The position numbers were made by a program, and so were the translations under genes. Below the pieces are notes generated by a model that was not told the origin of the DNA, did no database searches, and worked only from the letters and a program-made list of their open reading frames with translations. A DNA stretch of 64,000 nt from Emiliania huxleyi CCMP1516 (taxonomy: Eukaryota), in NCBI RefSeq assembly GCF_000372725.1, contig NW_005201102.1, forward strand, positions 186,001 through 250,000. Reading direction: 5' to 3'. Each line of letters starts with the position of its first letter. Position 1 is the first letter of the stretch. Below are positions 5,290 to 61,547 of the stretch, piece by piece.

Positions 5290-7347
5290 TCATACACTGC
5301 TCACCGTAACACTGCCCCCGTCGATCGAGGAGGACTTGCGGTGCTCGCGCAGCTGCTCCCGGTTATGTGGGAGAGAGAGATGCCAGGTGCGTCGCAGCTC
5401 GCCGAGGCTGCGACGGGTGCGTCTGTCGATCAACAGCGCGAGCCTGGGCGAGAATGGTGCGCGCGAGTGTCGAGACTCGCGCAAGAGGGTGTGTGTGCGC
5501 GGGGGTAGTGGTGGTGGGGTTTGGCCGATTGTTTGGGAGACGCCGAGGGGGGTGCGGTGGGACGCCGCGCACCGTCCTGCCTGCGCCGCGTGTCGCCTCC
5601 ACCGAGACCGCAACGTGAACACCTTCCATGCGTCCATGCACGAGCGCAGCCGCACCGCCGCGCCGGCGCGCAACCGGACGCAATGGCCGACTCCAGACGC
5701 GCCAGCGGCGGCCGCATCAGCGGAGGCCCCGACACCGCCGCCAGCCGCCGCGAGCCCGCCGTCGACAGCGCGTCGCAGCTGCTCATTCTCGTGGAGCAGC
5801 TCCGACAGCGCATCCCACTCCGCCACGCGAGCCTGACGCGAGGGCACGGACGCGTGTCAAGGGGGCAGCTGGTCAGCTGGTCGAGGTGGCCGCTGGTCAA
5901 GGGGGCCGCTGGTCAAGGGGGCCCTCCTCCCGATGCCTCCCTCCCGATTCCGACAGGGAGCGAGCGAGCCTGCAGGAAGGCTCGGCCTGCCATACCTCCA
6001 GAGTGGTCGAATCCAGTGTGGGTTTAGTCCCGTGGGTGGTGCGGTGGCCTGCGAGAAGGCTCGGCCGTCCACGAAGCCGTCGCCGCCGCGCCCCTCCCTC
6101 CCGTCTCGGACCGCTGTCTCGAGTTGCGGCTGCGTCAGTACCTCGACGCTCCCGTCCAGGTACCGCACATGGAAGCGGAGCGCCTGCAGGAAGGCTCCAG
6201 GAAGTGTCTAAGAGCTGTCTAGGAGGTGTCGAGGTACCGCACACGGAAGCAGGACGCCTCTGCCGCACCAGCGGCGACGCCGCCACCCTCGCCGCCGACA
6301 CCCAGCCCGCCGCCGCCGAGCCCGCCGCCGCCCTCGCCTCCGCCGCCGCCGCCGCTGCCTCCAAGAGGCAGCGACAACGTCACCCGGTCCACGACCCTCC
6401 CTCGCGACGCGCTTGCACTCTCTCCTTGAGCCCCGTCCGCCGGGCCGGCACAGAGAGGCCCGCCGCCCGCTCGAGGGCTGCGCGCATCGCGGCTGCTGCT
6501 GCGGCACACCTTTGTGGCGTCGGTCGGGCTGGCGGCTTCCGTCGGGCTGGGCGGCCCACCGCTCGATACGGACGGCCCCTCTTCTAGCCGCAAGGTGGCG
6601 GCGCGGCGCGACCGCTCGGCCTGCCTCTGCTCCCGGTGCGACTGCTCGAGCTGCCACTGGCGCTGCTGCAGGAGGGCGAGCCCCCGCCTACCATACCTCC
6701 ATAGTCTCGAATCCGGTGTGGGTTTAGTCCTGTGGGTGGTGCGGTAGCAGGGTGGCGAGCCCCCGCCTGAGGAGGCTGGAGGAGGCTAGGGTGGGTGGGT
6801 GGAAAGGGGCGGGGCCCGCCGCGAGCGGGCAACACCGCGGGCAGCCAGTGAGGCGGCGGCGGCGGCTTGGGGCTGGAGAGGAGTGCGCGCCGCTGCTGCT
6901 GCCGCCGCTGCCGTCGCTGAGCTTCGAGGTGCTCGACCCGCCTATCGAACCGTAGGGCGTGAGCACGAGAGCACGCCGTTCCTGCCTTCTGTGCGCGGGC
7001 GCCTCTGCGCTCGCAGCACCGCGGCGGTCGCCTCAAGCTGCCGCCGCCAGAGCTCGTGTCGCTGGCTGTCGACACTCGCACTCAAAGATTGCGCCGCCGC
7101 CGCCGGCGGCGGCGGCGGCGGCTGTGTGACCGGTTTAGGCGGTGCTGCCGCCCGACTGGCGGCGGCGGCGGCGCGCTCGGCAGCCGCCGCATCACGCCGC
7201 ACCGCCTCGCGCCGCACGGCAGAGCAGTGGTGCTCTCGGGCAGCAGAGTCTGACGACGCCGTCGAGAGTCCACGCCGCTCGAAGCACCTCGCCTCCGTCG
7301 AGGCAGCCCGAGTCCCTCGAAGCTCCCGATAGCGCTCCAACGCCATT
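5290..7347 (-). CDS. Hypothetical multi-exon low-complexity/coiled-coil protein; ends approximate
   Basis: ORF pieces join across predicted GC-AG introns 6688-6766, 6184-6257 and 5987-6065 (...SLLR/RGLALLQQRQWQLEQSHREQRQAER...; ...AAE/ALRFHVRYLDGSVEVL...; ...ARVAEWDALSELLHENEQLRRAV). No recognisable domain. Confidence 0.45.
5990..6044 (-). mobile_element. Introner-like ~55-nt element, family A, copy 1 (in predicted intron 5987-6065)
   Basis: + strand CCATACCTCCAGAGTGGTCGAATCCAGTGTGGGTTTAGTCCCGTGGGTGGTGCGG, flanked by a ~20-nt exon duplicate (gcctgcaggaaggctcggcc / gcctgcgagaaggctcggcc). Confidence 0.75.
6691..6744 (-). mobile_element. Introner-like element, family A, copy 2 (in predicted intron 6688-6766)
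   Basis: + strand CCATACCTCCATAGTCTCGAATCCGGTGTGGGTTTAGTCCTGTGGGTGGTGCGG, flanked by the duplicate ggcgagcccccgcct. Confidence 0.75.
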
Positions 7348-8464
7348 CGGCCCCTCCCCCTCTCCCGCGACGCCCCCCCTTCCTCGTCCACGCCGCCCCC
7401 CCCCGCTGCCTCCCCCCTTCCCGTCCCGCGCCCCGAGCCCGGGCGCCTCCTCTCCACACCCCGCGCACAGCACCCCCCCATTCGCGGAGAGCACCCACCC
7501 CGTCCTCTTCATGCAGCCCCGGGCTGTCCGTCCCGTCCGTAGGCGTGCCGGAGGTAGAATATTGCGACCATGCTATCACGCCTTGCGACAGCCTGTCGGC
7601 GCTGCTGACCGTGCCATGAGGCACAATTGATCACCTGCATAGCTCGCGGCTAGTATCCAGCATTCAGTAGGTAGGTAGGTAGTAAGGTGAAGAACAGCCA
7701 GGCTCGGACTGGACACCAACGCGGTATGGGTGGACGCTGGACAGATGATGACGACACGCACGAGCGACACACAGACACAAACAAGCTCACAAGACACATT
7801 CAGTGACGACCTGATCGTACGGCCAGTAGGAAGGTGTCCTTCCAGCGCGTGCACGCTTCTGACGCAATGCGCGTCACAAACTGCCTCGGATTGGCTGCTG
7901 GCACTCTCGCTCGAGGCTGTGCCTACACAGCCTCGCGCGCATGGGCAGTCAAGAGGGACCATGCACCTTCTCACGACAGCGCCGGTGCCTCTCTCTTGGA
8001 CCGGCAAACGTGGGGGTCTCGTGTCACCAATGTGGGACCAGTGCGGCATCGCGCCATCGACAGCTCTGAACTGCGCCTCACCACTGACCGGGAAGGCCGC
8101 CAAGTGGGCCAGCACCGGTCACACATTGTGGCAGCAGTCAGCAGTGCATGGCTGATAGCTAGAGCAGCAGCGTCAGGGTCGCAGGGTCGGATCGTGTCAA
8201 GCCTCTCGCCCGGCCGGCCGCGTGCAGACGTCGGCCTGTCTGCTGTCTGGAGTGATCTGTCGGCGGTCAGTACGACCGATCAGGTTGGAGTTTTCTGGTT
8301 AGATGGTCTATCTGTATGTACTCCTTGAGATATCTCCAAATCTGCCCTCTGATTAATCGTGCTTAATCGGGAAGTCGGTGCTAACGGAGACTAGCGGAGC
8401 CGGGGCCCGCCGTTTCCGCACTGCGGCGCGGCGCACGGTGCCTCCGGGGGCCCCCGCCTCCCCC

Positions 8465-8680
8465 CAGAGCCCCAGCCAGTTCTTGGTGGTCCAAGTCACC
8501 TCATCGAGGTACTGGGCCCGAGTCAGCTTGTTCTGTAGTACGTTTCGCCGCCTTCCAGAGGATCTCGCCGACCCCCTTCCCGAACCCACCGAACCGATTC
8601 GAACAGCAGCAGCTGCACGTCTCCCTGGCGTAGCGAACCGGTAATCGCCGCCGTAAGTAGACGGTACGTGGCGGTCGCCG
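8465..8680 (-). mobile_element. Frameshifted relic resembling the C-terminus of a non-LTR (RLE-type) retrotransposon ORF
   Basis: With two +1 shifts it reads DVQLLLFES-FGGFGKGVGEILWKAA-NVLQNKLTRAQYLDEVTWTTKNWLGL, homologous to the peptide at ~36085-36222. Confidence 0.5.
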
Positions 8681-9001
8681 CCCACCGCCCTGCCCCCCCT
8701 GGAATCGTGGTATGCCAGCGAGCGACCCGTCCCTTGCCCTCTCTCGCCCTTGCTCTTCCTCTCCCCCTCCATGCCCCCCCCCCCCCCTTCGCAGTAGGGC
8801 CCATGCCCCTCAACAATGTTCAGGATGAAAAAAGAACATAAAAAAATAAAGTTTTTAAAACAACAACCGCGCGACAGAATTCTTTTATTCCTCAGCGTAA
8901 AATTCTTTTATTCCACCACAGCCCGGCGCCAAACGGCCCGGCCGCTCGCCGGAGCCGGAGCGCCTGTCCTCCGCGCGCCTCGTCGCCCCCGGGCGGCTCC
9001 C

Positions 9002-12000
9002 ATGATCCAGGCCGGCCAGCGGTACAAGCTCTCGGGCCTGGCCGCGGCGCACCTCAACGGCAAAACGTGCAAGATTCGGCGGTACGACGAGGAGAAGAAG
9101 CGGTGGATTGTGGACCTGGATGCGGATCTCGAGAAGAACAACGATGCGCCAAAGGCGCTCCGCGCGGAGAACCTCAAGCCCATCACCGAGCCTCCGCTCG
9201 GAGGCCCCTCCACCCCTCCGCCAGCCGCAGCGCAGCCATCCGTTGCTCCGTCGGCGGTGGCGGGAGGAGGGGGAGGCGCGGCGACGACGCCGACGCAGAC
9301 GGGCGCGGGGCTCTCAGCGAACGAGCCCACCGAGATCACGGGCGAAGAGTTCCGGCGTAGCGTCGCGGCGAAGGCCAGCATGGCGCCTCCGCTGACGCCG
9401 CCGTCGGCGGTTGTGGGCGCGGGCGGCGCGGCGGCGCGAGGCGGCGCGCCAGCCGCCAAGCGACGGGTGGTGCCGACAGTGGTGCCGACGGCCTCGGCCG
9501 CGGCCGCGGCATCGGTCCCAGCACCGCCGCCCGCCGCCTCTGCCGGTGGCGATGCTGCTCGCGTGGCGGGCTGCTCCAGGGTCGCTGCTGCTGCGAGGAG
9601 CCCCGCCTCCGTCTCCAACATGGACTTGGACGAGGAGGAGGAGGGGGAGGAGGAGGAGGAGGAGGAGGAGGGGGAGGAGGAGGAGGCTGCGAGCGAGGAC
9701 GGGGATGCGGCCGACGGCGCGCCTCCTCGGCGCGCCGCCGACGAAGCAGGGCGCGAGGTGCCGCTATGGGGAGATGTGGGGAGACGTGGGGAGATGTCGG
9801 GAGGGCGCGAGGTGCCTCGCTAGCCGCATCTCAGCTGCACTGCCAATCCCGCCGCCGCCTCCTCCTCCTCCGCCTCCGCCGCCGCCACCGCCGCCGCCAC
9901 CGCCGCCGCCGCCGCCGCCTCCACCGCCGACCCCACCCAGCCCGCCACCACCCTCCTCCCCGCCTCCCTCCCCGCCGCCACCCTTTCCGTCCGCACACCA
10001 CCGCCCCCGCCACCCCTCCTCCCCGTCCGCCCCTCCTCCCACTCCGCAGGCGCTGGTCCGGCGGCTTCTCGACGCGCAGAACCGGGAGCGCGAGCTCGCG
10101 GCCCTTCTCGAGGACGGCGCCGTCGGACGCGCCCTCGGCGACGATGACGGCACCGGACGCCTAGAGCCGGACGCCTAGAGCCGGACGCCTGGAGCCGGAC
10201 GCCTGGAGCCGGACGCCTGGAGCCGGACGCCTGGAACCGGGACGCCTAGACGCATGTCTTCCAACCCGCGCCCGAGAGGGCACGGACTCCGCTGCATCTC
10301 CCCACACCTCCGCTGCATCTCCCCATCTCCGCCACATCTCCGCTGCATCTCCCCGCATCTCCCCACATTTCCGCTGCATCTCCCCGCATCTCCCCGCATT
10401 TCCGCTGCATATCCCCGCATCTCCCGCATCTCCCGCATCTCCCAGCATAGGCTCCGGAGTCTCGGCCGAGAGGCTCAAGGCGGAGGAGCGGCTCCTCGCC
10501 GCCGCTGCAGACGAGGCCGCCGAGAAGGCGCGCGGCTCTACCGCCGAGCAGATGCTGCGCGACATGGAGGCGATGGCGTCCGGCGGGGGGGCGGCTGTCC
10601 CTCCGGCGGATAGCGGGCGGGGGGGCGGCGCGGCGTCGTCTGCGGCGGACGACGAGGAGTACTCGCCGGCGGTTGCGGCGGCGGCGGGCGAGGCGCTTGC
10701 TGCGGAGGTTGCCGGGTGGCGTGTGGAGTATGACGAGGCGCTCGAGCTGGTGGCCGAGCTGGAAGATGCGCTCGAGGCGAGAGGCGGCCGAGAGACAGCC
10801 GAGAGGCGGCCGAGAGACAGCCGAGGGACAGCCGAGGTGCGGCCGAGGGACAGCCGAGGGACAGCCCGTGTCCCCCCCCCCCCCCCCCTCCCGCCCAGGC
10901 GTCGGGCGTGTCGATCCTCGAGTTTGAGAGGGCGGCCGCCGCCGCAGACGCCGACGGCGGGTTCGGCGAGGGCGGCGCCTCGCAGGAGCCGCCCGCCGCA
11001 GACGCCACGCCGCGGTGCGAAAAGTGCCGCGCGCGACCGGCACTTTCCCTTGCGGCCGGCGGCGGAGGCGGCGGCGGCGGCGGCGGCGGCGGAGGCGGCG
11101 GCGGCGGCGGAGGAGGCGGCGCTGACAGGGCGCGGCCGCAGTCGCTTTGCTGGGTGTGCTCGGCGGACGCGGAGCTGGACGAGCGGCGTCCGCTCAAGTC
11201 GAAGCACGGGCAGAAGCAGGCGGCGGGCGCGTCTGGGTTCACCGGGTGGACCGCCGGCCTCCGCCGCACCGCCGACGCCAGGGCGCTCAAGCAGATGTAC
11301 AAGGTGGAGCGGCCGCAGCAAATCGGCAGGCTGGCGCCGCTGCTGGAGGACGAGGAGACGCTCGAGGTAGACGAGCTTGCGTCGGAGGGGGAGGGGGAGG
11401 AGGAAGAGGAGGGGGGGCGGCCCGCCAAGCTGCCGCGCCTCTTCTCCCACGCGCGTGCGCGCGCGCGCGCTGCGAGGGCGGCCGATGAGGAGTCCCTTTC
11501 GGGCGACTCGTCGTCCGAGGGCGAGGGCGGGCTCGGCGGAGGCGGAGGGCTTTCCGAGGCGAAGCTGGCGCGCGCGTGGCGGGAGGAGCTCAGGCACGAG
11601 GCGGAGGGTGGCCGCCGGCTGGCGCCGCGCGTGCGGAAGGGCGGCCACGACGCCAGGGCGGGCTCGCTGCTGCAAAAGTGCTCGGTCTGCCGCCACCCGT
11701 TCTTCGAGTGCGCGCAGGTGTACGCGCACCCGCAGCTCGGCGTCCCCCTCTGCCACTACTGCCACGAGGCGGTGGTGGAGGAGGAGGGCGGCGGAGGCGG
11801 CGGCGGCGGCGGCGACAGCGCGATGCCGGAGGCGCCGCCAGCCGCAGCAGGCGAGGGCGAGGAGGGCGCGGCAGAGGAGGAGAACGAGGAGGAGGAGGAG
11901 GTGGGGGAGGTGTGCGTGTGGTGCGCCGGGCTCAACCACACCGGTGGCGGCGAGGGCGGCGAGCCGGACGTCTTCCTCAACAACATGCTGCGAGCCGCGT

Positions 12001-15000
12001 CTCTTCACACCTCCTGCTGTGAACAGGCGAGCCGGACGTCTTCCTCTGCGACGCGGCCGGCTGCGGGCGGGCGGTGTGTGAGCGGTGCATCCGCTCCAAC
12101 TTGGGAGGCGAGGCGGCCGACGCAGTGCGCGAGGCGGAGCCGTGGCTGTGCTATGTTTGCGAGCCGGCGCCGCTCGCCCGTCTCGCCAAGCGATGCGCCG
12201 CGCTCGTCGCGCGGCGCAACAAGATCTCGCTCAAGCGCAGCCGCCGCGAGGCTCGCTGGCATGCGGCGGCCCCCGCCGGTCGCGGCGTGTCCGACCTCCC
12301 CTCCCGCGCCTTCACCTCCTCCCAAGACCTCGACGACGTCGACGACGCCGCCGCCGGGGGCGCCGCCCTGCCTGCGGGCGACGGCCGAACGGGCGGCGAC
12401 AGCCGAACGGGCGGCGGCGGCGGCGGCGCGCGCGCAAAGTCCGCCGCGGAGCTGGCACACGAGGCGCAGGAGGCGACGGCGGCGGCGATCGCCGCCGCCG
12501 CGGCGGAGGAGGAGGAGGAAGACGCGCGGGCGCGCGTCATCACGCTGTGGGCGGCTCGTGGCGAGGCCGGCGCGGTGACGGTGCTGCCGCGGCTGGCGCG
12601 GCAGCTCAAGCCGCACCAGGAGGAGGGCGTCCACTTCTTGTGGGGGGCGTGCTTCGGCTCCAAGCGGGCTGACAATGCGAAGCGGCGCGAGCACGGGTGC
12701 GTCCTCGCGCACTCGATGGGGCTCGGCGAGACGTTTGTTTGCCTCCTCCCCGCCCCGCCCCCCCCCCCCCCCTCTTCACACCTCTCCGCTGTGAACAGGC
12801 AAGACGCTCACCGTGATCTCCTTCCTCCACACCGCCCTCACGCGCGCTCGCACGGTCGAGGGGCGCTTCTACGCGCAGATGGGGCGCAACGCGGCGGTGG
12901 CCTAGTGCCCGCCGACGGCGGTCCTTTAGTGAGCAGCGTCTCTTCACACGTCTAGCCGTGAACAGGTGGCCGACGGACCGCCGACGGCGCTGGTGCTCGT
13001 GCCCAAGAGCGTCGCCACGCAGTGGGAGAGCGAGTTCGGCAAGTGGCTGCTCGACCAGTGCGGCAACCAGGCCGCGAGCAACCCGAGGAACCTCCGCTGG
13101 CAAAAGTTCCCCGACGCGGGCGCGCTCAAGCGGTCTCACTCGGGAGACGGGCGCGGCGGCGGGCTCGAGCAGCAGCGGCTGCAGGCGCTGCGCCGCTGGC
13201 GGAGGGAGGGCGGCGTGATGGTGATGGTGCACGACACGTACCGCTCCGTCCTCTCTTCCGCAAAGAACGACGGCGCGGAGCGGCAGGCGCGGGCGGCCGC
13301 CCAGACGGCCGCTGCCGCCGGCAGCGCCTCCGAAGCGTATGGCGGCACGAACGGTGAGGCCGTGGCGGCCTTCAACGCGGCGGTGGCGGCGGCGCAGGCC
13401 GCGCGCGCCGCAGCGGACGCAGCGGGGCAGGAGAGGGAGCGAGAGCTGGCGGAGTACCGGCGGCTGCTGCAGGACCCCGGTCCGGACGTCCTCGTGATCG
13501 ACGAGGCGCACGTGATCAAGAATGAGAAGAACCAGCTGCGCGCGGTCCTCGCCGGCGTGCGCACGATGCGGCGCGTGTTGCTGACGGGGACGCCGCTCCA
13601 AAACAACTTGCGCGAGTACTTCCACATGGTGGACTACGCGTCGCCAGGTTCCCTCCTCTCCTCTTCTCTTCTCTTCTCTTCTCTTCTCACATGGTGGACT
13701 ACGCGTCGCCAGGCGAGCTCGGCGACCTCGACACCTTCAAGAGGCTGTACGAGAGCACCATCACCGACGGCCAGTTCCGGTACGGCGAGGACGACGACGA
13801 GTCGCGCTCGCAAAGGGCAAAGACGCGGCGCGAGGTGTGTCCGAGCCACTTCCGGCACACTTCCGGCACACCTGCCGGACACTCCCTAGGCAAAGAAGCG
13901 GCGCAAGGACATGTCCAAGCGTATCTGGGCCCTCACGCGCAAGCTCGACAAGCTGGTGCAGCGGCGGGGCGTCGAGGTGCTGCAGCGCGACCTGCCGCGC
14001 TCGCAGCAGTACGTGATGGTCCTGCGGCCGACGCCGACGCAGCGCGCGCTCTACAACGCCAAGGTCGAGTCGATGGCCGGGCGGCAGCAGCTCTTCGAGT
14101 TCATGACCGACATGCTCCGCATCTACAACCACCCCGCGGCCCTCCTCGACCCAAAGACGCTCGCCCCGAACGCCAAGCTCGTCGCGAAGGCCGCCGCCGC
14201 CGCCAGCATCGACGCCGCCGCCGCCGCCGCCGCCGCCGGGGCCGCCGCCGGGGGCGCGCCGTCCCCGCACTTCCCGCCGGCCGCGCCGGCCGGCGGCGCG
14301 GGGGTGGGGGTGACGTGGCTCGAGCGGGCGTGGCCCGCCTCGCGGCGCGGCAACCCTGCGGCTGCCTTTGGCCCGGAGGTGTCGTCGAAGGTCGCGGTGG
14401 CGCTGGCGCTGCTGCAGCAGGCGGCGCGCGCGGGCGAGCGCATCTTGCTCTTCTCGCAGTCGCTCGAGTCCCTCGACGCGCTGCAAGTGGCGCTCCGCTA
14501 CGCGCCCTCGCCCCGCCGCGCGCGCGCGGCCAAGGCTTTCTCGCCGGGCGGCCCGCCGCCGCCGCCCTCGCCGGGCGACGGCGGCGAGGGCGGCGTGGGG
14601 TGGCAGCCGGGCCTCGACTACCTGCGCCTCGACGGCAAGACGTCGGGGGACGAGCGCGACGGGATGGTCAGGCTGTGAACGGCGTCTCTTCACACCTCAC
14701 GCTGTGAGCAGGTCGGGGGACGAGCGCGACCAGATGGTCAAGCAGTTCAACGCGCGCGACTCTGCGATCCGGCTCTTCCTCATCTCGACCAAGGCGGGCG
14801 GCCTCGGCCTCAACCTCGCCTCTGCCTCGCGCGTGATCCTCTTCGACGCCTCTTGGAACCCGTCGTCGGACGTGCAGGCCGTCTTCCGCGACACTTCCTA
14901 GGCACTCCCTAGACACTTCCTAGACGCCTCTTGGAACCCGTCGTCGGACGTGCAGGCCGTCTTCCGCGCCTACCGCTACGGCCAGCGGCGGACGGTCTAC

Positions 15001-19729: not shown

Positions 19730-19746
19730 ACACAGACACAGACACA

Positions 19747-19840
<94 letters not shown>
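19730..19840. repeat. (CA)n microsatellite
   Basis: Long acacac run. Confidence 0.98.
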
Positions 19841-19841
<1 letters not shown>

Positions 19842-19874
19842 CAGACCCCCTGTTCAGGTAGGAGGCGGAACCCA

Positions 19875-33170: not shown

Positions 33171-35823
33171 TCACAACTTCGATGGCACCGCCGGCTGCCG
33201 CGACAGCTCGGCGAGGCACAGCTCGGCGATCTTCACGTCCTGGATCGCGACGCCCGTCGAGTCGAAGACCACGAGCTCGGGGCGACTGGGCTTCGAGCCG
33301 CGCCCCCACCCTCCCTCCGCGATGCACTCGCCGAGCTCCCTCGCCTCTTCCGGGTCGAAGCCCGCTGCGACGGCGTGCTGGAGCTCGCCCTTGTCGACGC
33401 ACTGCGCCCGCGAGTCGACGACGACCAGGTCGGCCTCGATCAGCGCGCCCGCCTCGAGCTCTTGCTTGCCGGCCGAGTCCGCGCCGATCGCGAGTACGAC
33501 CACTGGCCGGCGCAGCCACGCCGTCCGGACGATGGCCGACCTCGCTGGCGTGACGGTGAGGACGATGCCCGCACCGCGGCACGCAGCCTCCGCCGACGGC
33601 GCTACCTCGGCCGCCCACCCCGCCGGCCCGCCGTCGAGCTCCGCCGCCAAGGCGCGCGCCTGCTCGGGTCGCCGCGACCACAGACGAACGGCGCGGCAAG
33701 GCGTGACCGCGGCGAGCATCCCCAGCTGGTACCGCGCCTGCACGCCGCATCCGATGACGGCGATGTGGTGCGGCTCCGCCGGCGCGAAGAGCGACGCGGC
33801 GAGCGCCCCGGCGGCGGCGGTGCGGAGCTCGGTCAACAGGCCGCCGTCGAGCAGCACGGCGAGCGGCGCGAAGGTGCGCTGCGAGAAGACGAGCACGAGG
33901 CCCGAGTTGTTGCCGCCGCCGCCGCTCGCCACCTTGGCGACGAAGACCTCGCCCCCCTCCTCGTAGGCCGACTTGATGCACGCCTGCCCGTCGCCCTTGC
34001 TGTCGCCCGAGAACCGTCCCAGCGGGGGCTGGCCCAGCGTCTGGATCGGAGGCACCGACACGCGGCCCTGCGAGTAGCTAGTGAAACCCGCGGCCAGCGC
34101 GTCGAGGATTGCACGCGGCGCAACCCGCCCCATCGCCGCCGCAACCTCTCTCTCCGAGTAGACCCGAGGAGGCGGCGACACAGCCGCCGCCACCGCCGCC
34201 GCCGCCTCCGCCTCCACCGCCTCCCCCGCCGCCTCCGCCTCCACCGCCCGCTTGACCTCGCTCGCCCACGCCTCGAGCTTGAGCTGTCGGCTCGCCGCCT
34301 TCGGGTCGCGGAGCCGGCGGAACTTCTTCGGCTTGCGCTCGAGCGCCGCGACGCGCGGGTCGTTGCACACGGCTGCGGGTAGGCCGGCCGCCGCCACGGC
34401 CTCCTCAAACTTGGCGGGGTGCGCGGTCAGCACGCAGACGACCCGCCCGCCCTCGCACGCGGCGCGGACGGACTCGACGTGGTCGAGCGCGTGCACGCCT
34501 AGTCCCATACCTCCAGAGTACCGAATCCAGAGTGTAGGCTCAGTCCGGGGGGTGGTGCGGAGCGCGTGCACGCCGATGGCGGAGTGCGGGTCCAGCGCGT
34601 ACCCGTCGGCTGCCCAAACCTCGCGCATCGTCTGCAGCGTCTGCGCGTCGCTCACGGCGCAGGAGACGAAGGTGTCCTGGACGGCGTGCAGCAGCGGCGG
34701 AGGCAGCGCGACGGCTCGGTCCGCCTCGAGCGTCGCCATGAGTGCGGCGACCGCCGTCGCGTCTCCGCCCGAGCAGAAGTAGAGGAGCCGCTCGACGTTG
34801 TACGCGAACTGGATGTCCATCGCCGGAGAGACAGTCTGCTGGTTTGCGCGCATCGACATGTCGCCCCTCGAGATGGTCCGATGCACGACATCGTTGGAAT
34901 TCGTCGCGCAGACGATCCTGCCGACCGCGCCGCCGAGCCGCTTGGCGAGCAGCCCGCCCGCGGCGTTGCCAAAGGCGCCGGTCGGGACGACAAAGTGGAC
35001 GGGCCGGTCGGAAGCGGGCGAGACCTGTTGGCACGCCCACAGGTAGTAGCCCGCCTGCACGAGCACGCGCGCCCAGTTGATCGAGTTGATCGAGCAGACG
35101 GAGTGGCGCCGCATGAAGGCCGCGTCTTCGAAGACGCGCTTGAGCGCCTCGGCCTGCTCGTCGGTGTCGCCCTCCGTGCGGTAGACGAAGACGTTCGGGC
35201 TGTCCACGGTCACCATCTGCAGCTCCTGCACGCGCGACACGCGCCCCTCCGGATACAGGCAGAAGATGCGCACCTGATCTCGGGTGATCTCGGGTGATCT
35301 CGGGTGATCTAGGGTGGCACCGCGGGTACAGGCAGAAGGAGCGCACCGCCTCGCAGCCTCGCACCGCCTCGATGGCGGCGGGGCCCGTGTCTCCGGACGT
35401 CTCGACCACGATGGTGGCGCGCTCGCCGCGCCCGCCGAGCACGTGGTTGAGCAGCCGCGCCACGACCTGCTGCCCGATGTCCTTGAAGGCGAGCGTCGGC
35501 CCGGCGCCCGTCTCGAGGAGCAGCCGCCGGCCCGCCCGCACCAGAGGCAGAGCTGGCTCGAGCCCGTTGTTGAACGAGAGGAAGGCGGCCGCGCAGATCT
35601 CCTCGCAGTCGGCGAGCGCGATGCCGGTGAAGGGCTCGAGCACGCGTGCCGTCACCTGCGCAAGCGTCATGCCCGGGTGTAGCCCGGCGATGTGGTTTGG
35701 CATCGTCGACAGTTCGGGCACGAAGAGGCCGCCGTCCGGCGCATAGGCGGAGAGCAAGATGTCGGAGAAGTCGAGGCCGTGCACGCCTCCGCGCGTGGAC
35801 TGATAGCGGACCCGTGACGGCAT
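33171..35823 (-). CDS. Fusion of a threonine-synthase-like (THNSL2-type) PLP enzyme and an ornithine cyclodeaminase/mu-crystallin domain, with C-terminal PTS1 (SKL); introns 35274-35346 and probably 34499-34573
   Basis: TS motifs: RYQSTRG, APDGGLFVPE, GPTLAFKD (PLP Lys), TSGDTGPAA, NSINWARV, VPTGAFGN, SPAMDIQ...NVERLL, DPHSA, TAHPAKF. OCD motifs in the same frame: LTELRTAAAGALA, IGCGVQAR, AIGADSAGKQEL, FDSTGVAIQD. Ends PSKL-stop. Confidence 0.9.
34505..34560 (-). mobile_element. Introner-like element, family A, copy 3 (75-nt in-frame predicted intron 34499-34573)
   Basis: + strand CCATACCTCCAGAGTACCGAATCCAGAGTGTAGGCTCAGTCCGGGGGGTGGTGCGG, between two copies of gagcgcgtgcacgcc (GVHAL is duplicated in the ORF). 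Confidence 0.8.

Positions 35824-37398: not shown

Positions 37399-37481
<83 letters not shown>
37399..37481. repeat. (CA)n microsatellite
   Basis: Long cacaca run. Confidence 0.98.
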
Positions 37482-52693: not shown

Positions 52694-53171
52694 TCAGGGC
52701 AGCAGCGCCACGACAGAGCGAGTGTCGCCCGTTCGGCGTATTGCAATACTCGACCGACGCGCGACGACCGTCGTAGATCTATCTGTGGCTTGCGTCCTTT
52801 TCGAGCTTTGAGAAATATTACGAAGTAAAGTTTAACTGAAAACGACTCAAGTGGACACAAAGACAAGTATAAGGTGGGGAAGACCAAGTCAGTGATTCCC
52901 AAACATGCGCTTGCAGGGTGATCACAAAAAAGAAAAGTCAAAGACCGCTCAGCGTGCAGGGCGGAGACACATGTCCCTAAATCCCATCTCGTCTCAGAGT
53001 CGTTGTGCGTTTTTTAATTTTTACGGCAGTTTGGGGAGAGAGAGAGAGAGAGATTTATTAACTTTTCTTGCAGTTTGGCTAATTCCATTTCACTCTGACA
53101 CGCTAATCTTGAAAACGTCTCCAACGGAGCTCCGTGTTGCTTCCAGCGCCCTCCCCCGCGTCCCTGCGGCC

Positions 53172-54750
53172 ATGGCCGATGCTCCTAGTATGAGAGGTCA
53201 TCTGGCTACCGCGAGCGCGACCCAACTCGTTGACGTCGTCCGATGGTTGTGCCTCAAAGTCAGCCTTCGGAGGCTATCGTGGGGTCGAGCCGGCGGCGGC
53301 TGTTACATGTGGTTCCACCACCCCTCGTAGGCTTTGCCTCTGACCGCCACCGTTCCCAGGCTGCCTAATGGGATGGAAAGGAAGGCTCGGCGAGCGTCTA
53401 GAAGCGTTCGAAGGCCCCCGCACGGGGGGTCCCGGCCGACGTCATGCGCGTCCGCCAAGGGTCCGGGGTCGCCCAGGCAAGTCGTCTTGGCAAGTGGCCC
53501 AAATCCGATGAGTTTTCCAGGTGTGAACAGCTGTTGAGAGGTGTGAATTCATCCCGGGCGGGGTGCGGGGCGGTAGTCCCGCAGAGAAAATTTTGCGTGC
53601 TGGGGCACTGAGATCGCAGTTTTATTAGTCCACGGCGGATGCCAGCTGCAGCTGCGAGGAGACACGCAGTGCCTCATTTGAGCATGAATCAGCGTCCTTT
53701 CTGCTGGCATCACGCATAGGAGAAGCCGAGAGGCACGAGGTCCTCCAATTTGCCGTACCGACGTCGCGCCTAGAGAAGATCACGGCCGCTGCCAAGCAGG
53801 CCAAGCTCGATCTCGACCGCGACCGCGCCTCTGCCGCCCTCCCCCCTGCGCCCGCCGCAGCTGGCCTTGCGTCCGGCGTCGCTGCCACCGGCCCCGCCGG
53901 CCTTGCGCCCGGCGCCGCTGCCACCGGCACCGGCACCGGCCCCGCCGCTTCTGACACCGCCGCGTCCGCCGCGCCCGCCGCCGACCCGCCGACGGAGTCG
54001 CCGCTCACAATTGCAACACCAATGCTCGAGATCAGCACGAACGTTGTGATCGCCACGTACGACAGCGCGGGTAGGTTCGACTGGTGGTGCGGCCGCGTGC
54101 AGCAGATGCTCTGCAAGTCGGGCGGCAAGAGGGGGAGCTACGTGCGGACCTATCTCCCCGTGCCGTTCGACGAGGCTAAGGCAGCCAACTATAAGATCCA
54201 CTGCAACTTCTACGCCAAGTCGGGCGCGGACGGCGACTACACCTTCAAGTACAACGTCGACGATTCCGCCCCGTACCACATGGAGTCGGTGCTCGGCCTC
54301 CTCGACCTCAACCTCCCCACCGACGAAGGAGTCTACGTGCCGCGCGATCAACAGGCCGGCTGGAAGTTTGACGAGGCGCTTAAACTGATCACGCCGGCCG
54401 CGGACTCTGCTCCCCACCGCAAGCGGAGTACCGCCGACGACGAGGCTGGCGGCTCCTCTGGCGCGAAGAAGCGCGCCCTAACGCTGACGCTCACACGCAA
54501 GGGCGGGACGCTTGGAATCTCTGTCGACCCCAACAACCACCAAATCACCAACGTGGTCGAGGGTGGCGCTGGCGACACCGCCGGGCTTTGCGTGGGCGAC
54601 TTCATCGCCGAGGTCAACGGCAAGTCGACGACCGGCGGCTCCTTTGGCAAGCTGCTGCCTGCTGCAGCGACGGCGGAGATTAGGCTGCGGCTCATCCGAG
54701 TGCAGGTGGTTGAGCCCGACCATCTACACCTCCCTGACCTACTAGCATAA
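53172..54750 (+). CDS. Hypothetical protein with a C-terminal PDZ domain; predicted intron 53259-53628
   Basis: LTLTRKGGTLGISVD...ITNVVEGGAGDTAGLCVGDFIAEVNG is a PDZ signature. The frame is open back to TTTTATTAG at 53628, and a 29-codon exon from ATG 53172 joins in phase. Confidence 0.7.
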
Positions 54751-55290
54751 GTGTCTTCCCCTCCCCCTCGCACACAGGATTGACGCTGCTCTCGGCGCTC
54801 GCTCCCTCCTCGCCGCCGCGGACCAGGCGTGCCCGCGGGGGCTCTGCAGAGAGACGGCTCCGCGCGATCGGACCGACTTTTTTCAGACTGGACTATTCTG
54901 GATACTAAGGGTATGTGCAGCTAGATCTCACTGAGCTGAGCTCATATCTGCCCTCAGTATCCTGTTTTGAGTTCGGGAATGCCTTCAGTATCCTGTTTCC
55001 GTGTACGGAGGGCCGCGTCCGGACGCGCATGACGTCGGCCGGGACCCCCCGTGCGGGGGCCTTCAGCGTTCTCGACCTCATCGTGGCAACCACGCAGGAC
55101 ATTCGTTTTTGGCGCAAGAGAAGGAGAGGTCAGTGTAGTATTACAACTCAGGTGAGAAGTGACTAATTCCGCCCGAGTACATGAACAACTCCGCCCGAAA
55201 GGACGTCGCAATCATGTGACGGAAAGTGCGCTCCTCCTGACAAAGTGCGCTCCACCTCTCCTGGTCCTTCCCCTCTCTGGTCGTGGTGCG

Positions 55291-56208
55291 ATGCTGTCGA
55301 CCGCCCTGCTGCACCTCTGCCCGCTCGCGGCCGCCGTGCCGTCACCGACACCGTGTGAGTGCGGTCGCTCGGATGCCAAAGCTTCCACGTGCTCCGTCGA
55401 GCAGTTCCTCGACGCGACGTACTTTTGGGACTCCGTCGACCCAATCCCTGTCGACCCAAACTGCGCCAAGGACCCATACTCGGCGATGGGGTCTGAGATT
55501 ATTCAGGGCTTCAAAGCTTCCGACGACGGCAACTACAGCATCATTCAGGGCCCGTCCCCCTTTCCGCCGGGCACCTGCGGTTCGCGCTCCTCTTCAGATC
55601 CGCGTGTGTTCGGGCCGCACTTCTGGAAGACGTTCCACACAATGGCTGTGAACTATCACTCACCACCGACCAAGGCTGCACTCGGAGCTTGCTCCGCCTT
55701 CATCAAGGCCCTGCCTTACATGATCCCCTGCACTCACTGTGCCTGGGACCTAGGACAGTTCATCCAAACGAACATTGAAAACAGCGGCAAATACAACGAG
55801 ACCTGCATGGGAGCTACCTCGGAGCATTTTGATGAGTCCTTGTGCTTTGCACCCGAAGAGGCCTGCAAGTCGCAACGCTCGCTCGTCAGCTTCTTTGTTC
55901 GCGCGCACAACAACGTTAACAGCCACACGAACCCGTGCCGACCGCGCTTTACCATCAAGCAGGGCTATGACATGTACAAGAACTCCTCGCCAGACTTCTG
56001 CGCGCGTGACATCGTTTGGGGCTCGAAACAGATTTGTGGTGGCGGGTACTGCGCCCCGCGGGGACCGTGTGAAGAGATGGTTGGGCCGGTAGGAACCGGG
56101 ACAGGAAGCGGGCCTTCGGAAAACGACTACTTCGGAACCGACGAGACAGAGGGTTGCACCCTCGACACTGCTCTTTCCTGCGGCAGCGTGGCCTGCAAGG
56201 CGGCGTGA
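55291..56208 (+). CDS. Erv1/ALR-family FAD-dependent sulfhydryl oxidase, secreted-type, Cys-rich, intronless
   Basis: DPRVFGPHFWKTFHTMAVNY...P, LPYMIPCTHC (CxxC), FFVRAHNNVN; signal-like MLSTALLHLCPLAAA. Confidence 0.88.
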   Translation: MLSTALLHLCPLAAAVPSPTPCECGRSDAKASTCSVEQFLDATYFWDSVDPIPVDPNCAKDPYSAMGSEIIQGFKASDDGNYSIIQGPSPFPPGTCGSRSSSDPRVFGPHFWKTFHTMAVNYHSPPTKAALGACSAFIKALPYMIPCTHCAWDLGQFIQTNIENSGKYNETCMGATSEHFDESLCFAPEEACKSQRSLVSFFVRAHNNVNSHTNPCRPRFTIKQGYDMYKNSSPDFCARDIVWGSKQICGGGYCAPRGPCEEMVGPVGTGTGSGPSENDYFGTDETEGCTLDTALSCGSVACKAA

Positions 56209-56635
56209 AAAGTGCTATAAGAAGAGAGGGGGAGGATAGACAGTATATGATAGATGCGATCGCCAGCTAGGCGCCCAAGATAGAGGCCCATTCCGAATAG
56301 CGAATTAATTAACAGCTGTTGAGAGAGATTCTTCTCTCTCTGTCGCAGCTGCCTATCTGGAAGGCACCGAGAGGTACAAAATGGCGCAAATGGTCAAAAT
56401 CAAAGTTTTGTAACGCGAGCTGTGCCACAGTGAAATGGAACTAGCCTTTATCATCCGGGTGCACGCGGTGGGTCTGGACTTTCCTGACACGCGACGCCCC
56501 CGAATGCTGCAAGAGACGGGGGCAATTTAGCGTGAGAGGCCCGCCCAGACGGCTCGGCGGCATCGGGCGCCCGACCCGCGGCGCGGGACGCGGCGGGGAC
56601 AGGAGGGCGAGCCCCGCGGCGTTGTCCCCTCCCCT

Positions 56636-59600
56636 CTAGTCGGTCGCCTCCTCCTCGGCGAGGCGCGCGGCGAGGATGGCCTTGGCCGTCGCCTATTCTC
56701 CGCCAGCTGTCGGTTTCTGCGCGAGTTCTTCTTGTCGCGCCAGCTCTGGTCTTAAGCGTCGCCTCCATGCAGAGCGCCTCCTGCTCGTCCTTGACGCCGC
56801 ACCTAAAAAAGAAAAAACAGGTCCGAAAAGGAATACAGCGCCCCCTGCTCGTCCTTGACGCCGCACATCTTTGGGAGGAAGGAGTCGTCCTCGAACTGCG
56901 CGACGCCGAACGGCGCGAGCCTGCAGTGTGAATGCGCCAGCACTAACTAATTAATCAATTAAGTCGTTTGACGGGCGCGAGCCTGCAGTGTGAATGCGCC
57001 AACACCATCGGGGCGGGGCGACGGCAGGGCGCAGCGTCTCCAGAGCACCGCGAGAGTGAGAGCGATGCGAATACCGCGAGCACGGCTCGACTACTACGTG
57101 TCCTCTCGAGCGCGACGTGGCATGCAAGAAGACGTCTTCCGCTTCTCTAAGCGGCGCGAGCCCCGTTCGCGCGACGCGGCCGAGATATGGGGAGATATGG
57201 GGAGATATGGGGAGATATGGGGAGATATGGGGAGATATGGCGCGAGCCCCGTCCGCGCGACGCGGCCGACGAACTGCCGCAGCGTGTTAGCCGAGTGGTT
57301 GGCGATGAAGTCGCGGTCGACGAGCACCTGATGGAGAGTGAAATGAGTGAATGAACTAGCTCGTGTCGTTTGAGCGCGAGGACGGACGACATCGGAGGGG
57401 CGACCTGCTCGTACTCTCGGGTACTCTCGGGTACTCTCGGGTACTCTCGGGTACTCTCGGGTACTCTCGGGTATCCTCGGGTACTCTCGGAGGGGTGGCC
57501 TGCGCAGAAACAAGGGAGGCGACTCTGTCCTCCGACGCCTCTCCGAGGTGGTGGCCGACGCTACATCGACGAGCACCGACGTGCAGGGCACGTTGGCGCC
57601 GTACGTGAAGTCCTTGGTCACGCCGCAGACGGCGAGCGCGCCCTTCTCCATCTGGTCCGCGACGTAGTTTGTGTAGGCGATGTCGCCCTTTGGGTTGAGC
57701 GACGGCTCGAGCGGCATGTGCGCCGCCACGCCTACCGACAGGGGGCATGGCGACGCTCGGGGCTCCCTTCCTCTCGGCTCGAGCGGGCGTGTGCGCTTCC
57801 GCGCCCGAGAGGAGCAGCGAGCGCCACGTGTCGTCCACCGGCAGCGAGTCCACCTTTTTGAAGTCGCCGGTCGACGGCACCGACCGGTAGAAGGCGCCGT
57901 CGAACTGGTTGACCATTTGCGGCGCGAACTTCTTGAGGTGCGCCTTGGAGTGTTGTCGACGCGGGCATGAGTGAGAAAGAGTGCGTGGCTGCTTCTGAGG
58001 TGCGCGCCTTGGAGTTGGTCGACGCGGGCAGGAGTGAGAAAGAGTGAGTGCGTGGCAGCTTCTTGAGGTGGCAGCGCCTTGGAGTTGACAACGCAGTCCT
58101 CGGGGATCTTGAGCAGACCCGACGACTCGGAGAGGCCTACAGACACGGACGTCTCGACGCTGCAGGAGCGAGACCCTGTGCGGGCAGCGGCGGGAGAGGG
58201 GGGGGGTGCGAGGACCCATGTCGCGCAGCTTCGCGGCGATGATCTCCTCGACGCGGTCCTCGCCCCCCTTGACCTGCGAGAAAAAGAATTCTTTTGGCGA
58301 GGGAGAGTCTCGACGTCCCACCTCGGTTTCTGTGCTCAGAGTGTCGTGACCTTCTCCGCCTCCTTGCGGATGTTGCTCATCACCTGATTCAGTCATGCAA
58401 TCAATAGACTCCATTCAATACACGTCCTTCATTCGCAGCTTGCGGGCATGTGGGACATCACCTTCTCCGCGGCGGCCTCCTCCGCTTCGAGGTCCTTGTT
58501 CAGCTTCTTGAGCGACGGCATCTCGGCGATCAGCGCCTAGAAGACAGAACCCCGCCCACCAATCTTTCTTTTTTCTTCGTGGGCGGCGGCATCGCGGCGA
58601 CCCGCGCCCCGGACTGCACCATGATCTGCTTGTGCGGCTGCGCGGACACGGTGAGCGTCATGCCGGGGAAGTGGTGCGCGTTGCCCAGCAGCAGCTGCTC
58701 GGTCGAGTACGGCGGGAAGATCGCCTTCTGCATGTTCGTCGACGGCGTGCAGAAGGCCTTGATCAGCGCCGCGTCGCCGCACTCGCACAGCGTCTGGAGC
58801 ATGTAGCTCGCATAGTGGCGCAGCGTCGAGTGCGACAGCTTGGACAGGTCCGAAAAGTGGTCGTCCACCGCCGTCACCGTGAAGCCCGCCCGCTGAGCGT
58901 GCGCCGCGACGTCCTCCTCCTCGAGCCGGTCCTACAAGAACAAGAGACGGCGCGCGCTGCCTTGCAGGCGCGGCGTGTGGCGCCCGCGCGGCTCGTGAGA
59001 TCCGCTCGCGCCTGCATCGAGACGATCGCCTGCGCGGTGTACGCCTTGAGCAGCAGCGGCTCGACCTGGAGGCGAGGTCACCCGAGATCGCCCGAGATGG
59101 CCCGAGATGGCCCGAGATGACCTTGAGCAGCAGCGGCTCCACCTTGAGCCGCCCCACGAAGTCGGCGAGCGCTTGCGCCGGCTCCTCGGCCTCGGCGACC
59201 ATCGAGTGCGGCAGCGCGACTTGCCCATTCGCCTTGACGAGCAGGACGCCGACGTTGAGCTGCATCGACACGAGCTCGGCGACGCCGTCAGCGTCCTCGA
59301 CGATGTTGAACCGCTCCTTGACGCAGTAGCAGCAGCAGTGAGAATGATTATCACTCCCGGTGATGATTATCATCACTACTGGTAGTGATGATGTTGATCC
59401 GCCCCTTAGTAGCAGCGGCAAGAGGACGGATCATAGTGCTGCTGGTAATAACGATACTGATGATCTCGATCCGCTCCTTGAAGTATCCAATCGGCGTCTG
59501 CAGGTACGCGGCCGCCGGCAGCGTCGCCGACATCCAAACTGTCTTATACGGCGCCTGTGGACATGTCTCGGACATGTCCCGGACGTGTCCCGGTCGCCGC

Positions 59601-59938
59601 CTCTCCAGCCCTGTGTCTTGTGCGCGCGTCGAGCATGCCCGACACCATCGCATGCGTGAGCGTGCCTGGCCCGAGCGCCTGCCCGCCGCCCTGGTCGGCG
59701 CCCATCGTCGGCTCGTCGATGATGAGCACCGTCTTGTGCGGGTCCATCTGCATCGAGAGCCAGGAGCAGGACGCGACGTCCGTCACGAACATGCGCGGCG
59801 GCCGAATCACCTGCGCGCCGACTCCGTGGTGAATCCGCTGGCCAGTCCTCTCATTGGCTGCTTGGGCACGAGCCGCCGATCACTACTAGACTGCTCGCCT
59901 GCCTGACGCTGGCACCATTGCCGCTGCTGCTGCTGCTG

Positions 59939-60014
<76 letters not shown>

Positions 60015-61547
60015 TGCTGCTGTTACTGCTGCTGCTCGCCTGCACGTGCCGCTTGCGCGCGCGCTGGTTCGAGAGGCCGCCCGTGGTCTCCTGGATCCGC
60101 TCCACGCCAAGCCGCAGCTTCTCCTCCATCTGAGCCTAGGAGACAGGACCTCGCCCGCCTCGGAAGGAGGAGACGCCGCGGTGTCGCCGCTCGCCCCTCC
60201 GTCGTCTGTGCCATCGAGTTGGAGGTGGAGGAGCCGCGCAGGCCGCACAGCCAGGAGCAGGTGATCTGCTGGTTGTGCACCCACGCGAACGGGATCCCCA
60301 TGTTGTACAGCGTCTGGGCAACCTCGAGGTTGACGCGGCGCGCGAGGCAGCAGAAGACGACGCGGTGCTCGGGAAACAGCTCCGGCAGCGCCGGCGCGAG
60401 CGACGTCTTCCCCGTGTCGGGGGGCGATCGGAGGAGGACGAGCTGAGGCCCGGGCCGCGCGACCGCCTTGAAGAGCTGCACTTGGGAGGGGTACGGCTGC
60501 AGGAACTTGGACGCGTGCCGAGCCTTGAACTGGGACGAGGAGAGCAGCGCCGGGTGCTTGCGCAGGCACCTAGTACCATACCCCCACAGTATCGAATCCA
60601 GCGTGGGTTCAGTCCCGCCGGTGGTGCGGCAGGCACTTGTGCACTGTGAACTTGACCTTGACCTTGAGCGAGGCGAGGACGTGGCGCGCGTCGGCGAGGA
60701 TCTGCAGCGGCGGCAGCTCCTCGACCCCGTACCGCATCTTGTACTGCGTCTCGAAGATGACCACCGCGTCCGCCAGGTTGCGCACCGTCTTGTAGCGCGC
60801 CTCCTCCGAGTCCTTGTCGCCGTCGCTCTTCTTCTTGGCGAGCTGGCCGGCGGCGGTGCCCATCTCCTTGGCGAGCTGGAGCTCCCACGGCGCGTCGAGC
60901 ACCAGGTTCTTGCCCGGCTCGAGCGCCTCGAGCCAGCCCACCGCCCGGTCCCCAACCTGCACCTTTTTGAGCGTGTTGGACTTTGCCGCCTCGCCGTTCA
61001 TGATCCGCATCACGTTGTCAATCTTGATCTGCGTCTTGGTGTTGACGCCGCCGCCGCCGCCGCCCTTGCCGCCGCCGCCGCCCTTTTTGCCGCCGCCCTT
61101 GCCGCCGCCGCCCTTCTTGCCCTTCTTGCCCTCAGCGGCCGCCTCCTCTGGCAGGTCGAGCGGCAGCGCGGCCAGCTTCGGCCGGATGTGCGTCTTGTAG
61201 CACCAGGAGGCAAAGTCGTCCATCTCGGCGAGCATGTCGCCGAGGAACTTGCCGTTCGAGTCGTCCAGCTGCATCTCGCCCTTGGTGCGGATCTGCGAGC
61301 ACGCGCGCCGCAGCATCTCGGCGACCGTCTTCTTCTGGTACGAGAGCGCCGCCTCGATGTTCTTCCACTCCATCTTGTTGACCGAGTCCATGAGCAGGTC
61401 CGACGCGCCGAACCCCTCCGGCTCGGCCTCCGGGTCCGCGGCCGGCGCCGGGGGAGCGCTGCTGGAGGCGGCGGCGGACATTGTCGGCTGGTCGTCGCGC
61501 GAATGAGACGACGCGGGCTGAGACTGAAAAGAGAATTTGCTCGTCAT
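56636..61547 (-). CDS. Multi-intron superfamily 2 (Ski2-like) helicase; start at 61547 or 61481
   Basis: Motifs in order: LQPYPSQ (Q), SPPDTGKT (I), VVFCCLARRVN (Ia), IIDEPT (II), WMSATLP (III), TKDFTYGANVPCTSV (V), LRQFVGRVARTG (VI). Terminal exons join through introns 56921-57247, 56803-56866 and 56693-56762 to TAG at 56636-56638. Confidence 0.8.
59922..60035. repeat. (CTG/CAG)n microsatellite inside a predicted helicase intron
   Basis: About 37 near-perfect ctg units. Confidence 0.95.
60576..60629 (-). mobile_element. Introner-like element, family A, copy 4 (in predicted intron 60570-60636)
   Basis: + strand CCATACCCCCACAGTATCGAATCCAGCGTGGGTTCAGTCCCGCCGGTGGTGCGG flanked by the duplicate gcaggcac. 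Removal restores FTVHK/CLRKHPALL. Confidence 0.8.

Follow-up and report, generated by a model that had tools for sequence, protein, structure and literature searches.

Of the sources from which bursts of intron gain are known, introners are the best documented. Some co-opt a 5′ splice site from the target and carry the 3′ splice site themselves; a general model of such introners was reportedly given by Huff, Zilberman and Roy in 2016. Fungal introner-like elements are said to have been described by van der Burgt in 2012, and Li et al. reportedly attributed intron gain in Daphnia in 2009 to the repair of staggered double-strand breaks, with short direct repeats at the new introns. In the parts of the literature drawn on here, the model of Huff, Zilberman and Roy is described in a review that also mentions staggered double-strand break repair as an intron-gain mechanism (PMC11282704), and family 1 of Symbiodinium microadriaticum is given as co-opting the 5′ splice site and carrying the 3′ site, with a target-site duplication (TSD) of 4 bp (Gozashti et al. 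2022, PMC9860276). The same parts give introner TSDs in general as 3-9 bp (PMC9860276; PMC11282704) and state that fungal introner-like elements are thought to spread by reverse splicing and are without TSDs or terminal inverted repeats (TIRs) (PMC9860276). Here we describe a short element found in four introns of a 64,000-nt stretch of the Emiliania huxleyi CCMP1516 genome (contig NW_005201102.1, positions 186,001 to 250,000 of the forward strand; hereafter the window, to which all coordinates refer). The family belongs to the ‘co-opt 5′, carry 3′’ introners: at two of its copies one splice site is carried and the other co-opted, and at a third the AG on the element side is in use. At about 70 nt, the family lets the splice-site logic be followed base by base, and it allows two outcomes to be separated, namely introns that would have arisen de novo in exons and splice sites that appear to have been duplicated and taken over.

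Four copies of one element in the window

A profile built from the four copies (nhmmer, 64-kb window) returned them as the sole confident matches, all on the minus strand, with E-values from 3.8e-18 to 6.2e-17 and a runner-up at E 3.6. They are c1 (5990-6044, E 3.9e-18), c2 (6691-6744, E 3.8e-18), c3 (34505-34560, E 6.2e-17), located in a threonine synthase / ornithine cyclodeaminase fusion gene, and c4 (60576-60629, E 4e-18), located in the gene of a conserved haptophyte P-loop protein. An earlier note, made from the sequence alone, had placed four copies at these very coordinates, and the consensus it gave agrees with the alignment of the copies. Two sub-patterns of the element each matched three of the four copies and nothing in 100 shuffles. 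Read in gene sense, the core of 54-55 nt (CCGCACCACC...GGAGGTATGG in c1) has the layout CCGCACCACC..GGACTRAACCCAC..CTGGRTTCG..ACTCTGGAGGTATGG and is followed 3-6 nt on by an AG, as had been anticipated; the tails from core to AG are CAG in c1 and TAG in c2 (3 nt each), GACTAG in c3 and TACTAG in c4 (6 nt each). No longer sequence with the same ends was found by the profile search of the window.

All four copies lie inside introns removed from minus-strand transcripts, which bears out the earlier placement of the element in introns of gene sense; removal is seen in contigs of presumed-RNA runs for c1 to c3 and through a transcript-derived protein for c4. In fourteen public runs, about 40% of the words that make up a 10-kb stretch are present; these runs were classed as RNA by presumption, not by record, and four of them, from four studies, were compared with the window (X1, X2, X6 and X9). 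We treat these runs as RNA because canonical introns are skipped in them and intergenic bins are empty.

At c3 the intron is 75 nt long with GC-AG ends (34499-34573, minus strand); it combines the upstream duplicate, less its first G, with the core and GACTAG. In X6, a 2.6-kb contig connects 34484 with 34560 and leaves out 75 nt (slack 15 nt), and the GC..AG register (k=14) places the intron at 34499-34573; contigs of X1, X2 and X9 stop precisely at 34560. In an alignment that covers both sides, the solved threonine synthase 4f4f_A is without the 25 extra residues. The c4 intron (60570-60636, minus strand) has 67 nt and GT-AG ends and consists of the duplicate GTGCCTG, the core and TACTAG. Its excision merges two reading frames into ...FTVHKCL|RKHPALL..., and exactly this junction sequence is present in the transcript-derived protein P0013, which is 100% identical over the exon; three more distant homologues (P0001, P0005 and P0009) are continuous at the junction. 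At both loci the donor is the first GY (GC or GT) of the upstream duplicate and the AG comes from the element, so that the predicted composition of duplicate, element and AG holds here to the base.

That composition does not extend to the other two copies, which sit inside longer introns; the 79-nt introns predicted at c1 and c2 were not seen in the RNA-run contigs. The c1 core occupies the 5′ end of a 216-nt GC-AG intron (5833-6048, minus strand; donor CAG|GCCA, acceptor TCAG|GCTCGC), 4 nt past the donor (CAG|GCCA-CCGCACC). In each of the four runs, contigs connect 5830 with 6047 (slack 5 nt), for which k=2 is the only GY..AG register. The GC in use is formed by the last 2 nt of the upstream duplicate and is not the donor that had been predicted, and the acceptor in use lies 154 nt beyond the element's own CAG. 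Conversely, the c2 core occupies the 3′ end of a 203-nt GC-AG intron (6688-6890, minus strand; X1, X2 and X9, three of the four runs, joining 6684 to 6888 with 4 nt of slack, k=3). Here, contrary to the prediction, 124 nt separate the duplicate from a donor further upstream, and the acceptor, GGTATGGTAG|GCGGGGG, is the TAG adjoining the element. The AG carried by the element is in use at c2, c3 and c4 and not at c1.

Unspliced contigs were also observed, covering 5806-6019 at c1 (X1, X2) and 6659-6917 (X1, X2) and 6670-6905 (X6) at c2. Spliced and unspliced contigs of c1 and c2 occur side by side in the same runs, so the strains concerned carry the element and lose it at the RNA level. Seven introns around the copies are defined by RNA, and each of them has GY-AG ends on the minus strand, five GC-AG and two GT-AG. 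E. huxleyi is described, in the part of the source considered, as having 65% G+C, 56-60% GC-AG junctions and frequent intron retention (PMC4028052), and the GY-AG introns and common unspliced contigs reported here are in line with that description.

Flanking duplications at the four copies

A duplicate accompanies each of the four copies, as had been claimed, over a somewhat wider range of lengths (7, 14-15, about 20 and about 22 nt) than the 8-20 nt proposed. Flank comparison on the minus strand gives 20 nt with 2 mismatches at c1 (6047-6066 / 5968-5987), 22 nt with 2 mismatches at c2 (6747-6768 / 6668-6689), 14-15 nt at c3 (34561-34574 / 34486-34499) and 7 nt at c4 (60630-60636 / 60563-60569). 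At c3 and c4 the upstream duplicate repeats sequence of the coding exon, and these two introns hold only exon duplicate, element and tail and interrupt conserved coding sequence. In the c3 downstream duplicate (GGCGTGCACGCGCT, 34486-34499) the first G completes the AG and the remainder is exon.

The duplicates of c1 and c2 contain splice junctions. At c1 the upstream one (GGCCGAGCCTTCTCGCAGGC, 6047-6066) is exonic save for its last 2 nt, the donor GC, and the downstream one (GGCCGAGCCTTCCTGCAGGC, 5968-5987) is now intronic and contains what would be the former donor, CAG|GC. At c2 the upstream duplicate (AGGCGGGGGCTCGCCACCCTGC, 6747-6768) is intronic and starts with a putative former acceptor AG preceded by CCTCCTC, while the downstream one (AGGCGGGGGCTCGCCCTCCTGC, 6668-6689) comprises the AG in use and the exon start. 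If the element and one duplicate are taken away, c1 is left with a 137-nt intron whose donor CAG|GC ends the duplicated 20 nt, and c2 with an intron whose acceptor, CCTCCTCAG|G, opens the duplicated 22 nt. Both insertions therefore probably hit an existing splice junction and duplicated it; we infer this origin for c1 and c2 from the arrangement of the sequences.

Other RNA-defined introns nearby show a junction slack of 2-7 nt, and all their downstream exons begin with GY. One of the neighbouring introns, at 6184-6257 on the minus strand (74 nt, GC-AG, skipped in RNA contigs), holds no element and lies between the two units of a direct repeat of about 25-31 nt, which differ by a few mismatches and an indel (GCGTCCTGCTTCCGTGTGCGGTACCT... 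/ GCGCTCCGCTTCCATGTGCGGTACCT...). Introns flanked by duplications may be widespread in the E. huxleyi genome.

A dispersed family of 60 copies

The earlier note had expected a large family beyond the window, and a single scan of metagenome contigs did reveal a dispersed multi-copy family. The scan used a pattern with 20 specified bases from the 5′ half of the core and returned 58 loci, 56 of which have profile hits (68 hits in total); the two without come from other samples. After repeat sightings were merged, 60 distinct copies with unrelated flanks were obtained, that is, 56 in addition to the four of the window, which were themselves re-found (c1 as L010, c2 as L009, c3 as L001 and c4 as L032). 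Only one of the 60 is truncated at its 5′ end. Viral contigs gave no match to two element patterns. One metagenome contig (L029) carries three copies within 650 nt (374-427, 563-616 and 969-1022), the middle one in the opposite orientation, and the longest flank duplication in the sample, 36 nt, belongs to one of these three.

Immediately before the core, 51 of 60 copies have an A and, one position further out, 48 of 60 have a T; the full CTA stands there in 28 of 60. Behind the core, the tail reads [TG]ACTAG in 22 of 60, the others varying (e.g., TACCAG or ACACGTAG), and CTAGT[AC], which mirrors the ACTAG behind the core, stands before it in 4 of 60. A 3-nt target duplication of CTA was considered and rejected: the message would not be restorable, and c3 and c4 are without a 5′ CTA. 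Contrary to the description of the element as TIR-less, the outermost 12 nt of one end agree with the reverse complement of the opposite end at 7-10 of 12 positions in all 54 full-length copies (54/54; null P(>=9) 0.002). This TIR is imperfect, its mismatches are the same in most copies, and CTAGTACC...GGTACTAG is present at the ends of a minority of copies.

No structured-RNA or tRNA ancestry was found for the element in the Rfam, tRNA and fold checks. At the gathering score, Rfam gave no family in the window, and around c3 at E<=10 only chance-level matches appeared (best E 0.37); the tRNA search found none. The fold stability of the four introns is not unusual, with z from -0.4 to -1.2.

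For 22 of the 60 copies, a local repeat comparison of the two flanks scores above the 95th percentile of mismatched flank pairs. A strict test was applied to the 52 copies with an AG within 14 nt of the core, counting exact repeats that start directly after the first AG: repeats of at least 6 nt are found in 13 of 52 (null 4.5%) and of at least 8 nt in 9 of 52 (null 0.4% of mismatched pairs). The significant duplications range from 7 to 36 nt, with 7, 9, 10, 12, 14, 17, 20, 22 and 36 nt among their lengths. For 15 of the 22 duplicated copies at least one GY..AG register exists within the repeat, yielding introns of 71-98 nt, and in 11 of those 15 the register begins 0-2 nt into the repeat. The distance from duplicate to core also varies, from 0 to 14 nt upstream and from 1 to 12 nt downstream; a TSD of fixed length adjoining precise ends was thus not found, lengths, offsets and ends all being variable. 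The idea that the fillers separating duplicate and core open with old donors was dropped, by-eye inspection having supported it in only about 3 of 7 cases.

Orientation relative to genes

The statement that the element is always sense-oriented holds for all four copies of the window and weakens in the wider sample. Orientation was judged with a codon-usage model that was derived from three exons of the window, verified on a plus-strand gene outside this training set and applied as a local-segment test, which classed 21 of the 60 copies as sense, 7 as antisense and 32 as unclear. A sense bias exists; ‘always’ is not established beyond the window. Given that the ends form an inverted repeat, the reverse strand of many copies also ends in TAG. 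The local-segment test replaced a fixed-window codon test, which left 37 of 60 copies unclear on both sides, and the choice of introns by the best codon-scored GY..AG pair was abandoned after it picked the wrong intron for the c4 control.

How the element may insert and move

Taken together, these observations point, with moderate confidence on our part, to an introner family that inserts by break repair or a retroposition-like route with variable stagger, without a transposase of fixed cut. An insertion into an exon would leave one duplicate of host sequence, the 54-55-nt core and a short tail ending in AG, which together would make a new intron, as at c3 and c4. Because the upstream duplicate opens with the donor (GC or GT) and the element supplies the AG, splicing would restore the original message. 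At c1 and c2 the 20-22-nt duplications would have copied the splice site of an existing intron (CAG|GC and AG|G, respectively); the spliceosome would now take the outer donor in c1 and the element-side acceptor in c2, leaving the mRNA unchanged. The motif GGACTGAACCC, about 40 nt before the AG, is the predicted branch site, and if the element brings such a site with it, the downstream AG would be the one expected to be chosen in c2. The insertion process itself would be of the break-repair or retroposition-like kind, with variable stagger and no fixed-cut transposase, and selection would keep those insertions whose duplication begins with GY. A variable-stagger process is preferred because the duplications span about 4 to 36 nt, the element is ragged at both ends and one locus or more holds another locus's intron copied from donor to acceptor.

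The whole-intron copy is seen in L013 and L046, which have unrelated flanks and share a stretch of only 87 nt (95%) consisting of a 31-nt leader and the core, starting at the donor (GT in L013, GC in L046) and ending at the AG. The L046 leader duplicates 20 nt of its own downstream sequence and that of L013 does not, so L013 looks like a copy of a whole L046-type intron in which the earlier host duplication was carried along. Two further pairs are similar in extent: L007 and L027 have leader, core and tail in common from GC to AG (86 nt, 96.5%), as do L039 and L052 (80 nt, 91%), which lie 700 nt apart on one contig. Identity from donor to acceptor is clear in the first pair and suggestive in the other two. 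One explanation for such pairs would make the spliced-out intron itself the transposition intermediate, the whole intron being copied via RNA and inserted with a duplication of variable length; L046 and L013 would then represent parent type and daughter, and the start of each new duplication would become the next donor. If true, it would provide evidence on a genome scale that excised spliceosomal introns undergo retroposition. We regard it as unlikely. Outside L013/L046, shared leaders of at least 8 nt are only about twice as frequent as in the control (11 versus 5 pairs).

That modest excess weighs against the break-repair or retroposition-like route that we favour, as do several other observations. 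For 38 of the 60 copies the flank repeat does not exceed what chance would give, which leaves room for a short fixed duplication in the majority of copies. A TIR is the mark of a miniature inverted-repeat transposable element (MITE) mobilised by a transposase, and an imperfect one is present in every full-length copy; most classified introners, in the part of the catalogue considered, are TIR elements (PMC12130899). GY directly follows the element's AG in 36 of 52 copies, and it opens the exon at all seven RNA-defined introns nearby, element present or not, so that GY after AG is not specific evidence for duplication. Conservation of the 5′ half, including the putative branch motif, is not assessable from the metagenome sample because the search pattern fixed it; the apparent conservation of that motif is biased by a pattern that required it. 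Finally, for c3 alone the contigs, from runs presumed to be RNA, cannot tell splicing from an empty allele.

Several of these points are what a MITE-type introner would produce, with a transposase recognising the TIR ends and making a short fixed duplication, and with the long flank repeats due to chance or to secondary or local tandem duplications. The imperfect TIR, the CTAGT[AC] before the core (4 of 60) and [TG]ACTAG behind it (22 of 60), the 38 copies without a flank repeat beyond chance and the record of known introners, whose TSDs of 3-9 bp and frequent MITE-like character are noted in the cited parts of PMC9860276 and PMC11282704, would all fit. Yet no fixed short duplication was seen beside the CTA...CTAG ends when the flanks were read by eye, and the significant repeats span 7-36 nt with core offsets of 0-14 nt upstream and 1-12 nt downstream. 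The pair L013 and L046 is also at odds with TIR-defined transposition because the 31-nt host-derived leader that L013 would have taken over from the L046 type is located beyond the TIR. Variable duplications and a clear whole-intron copy argue against a simple transposase model, and we consider it rather unlikely that a MITE accounts for the family. A passenger that favours pre-existing introns and creates none is far less probable: c1 and c2 do sit in introns of 216 and 203 nt whose remainder is unrelated to the element and whose other splice site is far off, but c3 and c4 introns are nothing but duplicate, element and tail, interrupt conserved coding sequence and have upstream duplicates copied from coding exons. 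Least probable of all, and very much so, is an insertion polymorphism at the DNA level, by which the strains of the RNA runs would be without the segments and no splicing would occur. In its favour, many single-nucleotide differences exist between the runs and the window, the c3 gap is bridged by X6 only and the evidence at c4 is a protein from another data set. Against this, c1 and c2 show the joined form along with contigs reading into or across the element in the same runs, the skipped segments have GY..AG ends and at c1 and c2 include 120-150 nt of non-element sequence, and in three runs the contigs end precisely at the c3 junction. The variable duplications and the whole-intron copy make a route by break repair or through RNA testable in a culturable, ecologically important alga.

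Host genes and other repeats

The G+C content of the window is 60-74%, in agreement with the 65% described for E. huxleyi; along with the GC-AG splicing and the haptophyte homologues, it fits E. huxleyi or a close relative as the host. The assignment of the c3 host as a threonine synthase / ornithine cyclodeaminase fusion is supported by the Pfam domains PALP, THR4_C and OCD_Mu_crystall on the flanking open reading frame. At 33171-35651 (minus strand) a single frame links threonine synthase (PALP, THR4_C) to the ornithine cyclodeaminase / mu-crystallin domain, and RNA contigs cover the region of the fusion junction except for a GCC-rich low-complexity stretch at 34176-34253. The c4 host, labelled a superfamily 2 helicase in the earlier note, received no Pfam support for that name, since no Pfam family was found for the protein. 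Its product is a conserved haptophyte protein with a P-loop-like motif and homologues from Chrysochromulina, Pavlovales and Diacronema; the locus (59886-61598, minus strand; compared with proteins P0001-P0024) corresponds to proteins of about 800-1000 aa with 41-69% identity across haptophytes and a Walker-A-like PPDTGKT motif. The spliced c1/c2 transcript keeps an open frame of 381 codons through both junctions, and its codon usage is atypical (-0.12 bits/codon versus +0.5 to +0.9 in two other genes).

Other repeats in the window are of different kinds. Most of a 73-nt GT-AG intron at 35274-35346 (minus strand), which RNA contigs confirm, is made up of 10-nt tandem repeats (GTGATCTCGG on the plus strand). 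Arrays of a similar 10-nt kind (GAGATATGGG, GTACTCTCGG) occur at 57182-57251 and 57411-57500, and a 14-nt array at 10139-10250. Ten tandem 99-nt units at 61912-63007 (plus strand) show a strong coding signal and are, judging by their period, likely of ankyrin type. (CA)n microsatellites lie at 19743-19850 and 37399-37480.

Comparison with known introners

This family may already be on record. In the parts of the two catalogues considered, E. huxleyi CCMP1516 is listed with 653 introners in five families, two of them with a mean length of 70 nt and both TSD and TIR entered as ‘?’ (PMC9860276, supplementary tables 5 and 6), and with three families in a second study (PMC12130899, supplementary file 8), one of which, with 5 copies of about 69 nt, is entered as ‘co-opt 5′ carry 3′’ and as class Unknown and is noted to have ‘10bp terminal direct repeats’. 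Compared by these table descriptions, not by sequences, the family described here is alike in its length of about 70 nt, in its splice-site logic, in the terminal direct repeats noted and in a transposition class given as Unknown, and it may be among the published families. It differs in density, the tables having 5-158 copies per family in 168 Mb versus four in 64 kb here, and in its mostly GC-AG introns, versus gene models described as biased towards GT donors in the part of PMC4028052 considered. With donors mostly GC, gene models and introner screens that prefer GT-AG miss most copies, and this preference may explain the low published counts of introners in Emiliania. A literature search on introners or intron gain in E. 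huxleyi found no title or abstract about such a family.

With the ‘co-opt 5′, carry 3′’ introners the family shares a short non-autonomous repeat found in many unrelated genes and removed as a spliceosomal intron, an AG from the element, a donor from the duplicated target with the mRNA restored, TIRs and a marine algal host. Unlike those published, as far as the cited parts describe them, it does not keep to one short duplication length per family (4 bp in Symbiodinium, 3 nt in Micromonas, versus 7-36 nt here); its element ends are ragged and its donors mostly GC. Like fungal introner-like elements, it has locus pairs, three in number, in which similarity spans donor to acceptor and then stops. 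It differs from them in having flank duplications (22 of 60) and TIRs and in lacking an unusually stable fold; reverse splicing would leave likeness from donor to acceptor and no flank duplication, and here those 22 copies are duplicated and most leaders differ. Direct repeats of variable length flanking the intron, with no fixed stagger, recall the break-repair introns of Daphnia, in which, unlike the same 55-nt element found here each time, the filler is unique to each site. Of the features of short interspersed nuclear elements and similar retroposons, variable-length flanking duplications are present and a tRNA-, 7SL- or 5S-derived head with an RNA polymerase III promoter was not found; the tails are [TG]ACTAG and variants such as ACACGTAG, and 5′ truncation is confined to the single copy mentioned above. 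What sets this family apart from known introners is the widely varying length of the duplications, together with one clear pair of loci that share the whole intron.

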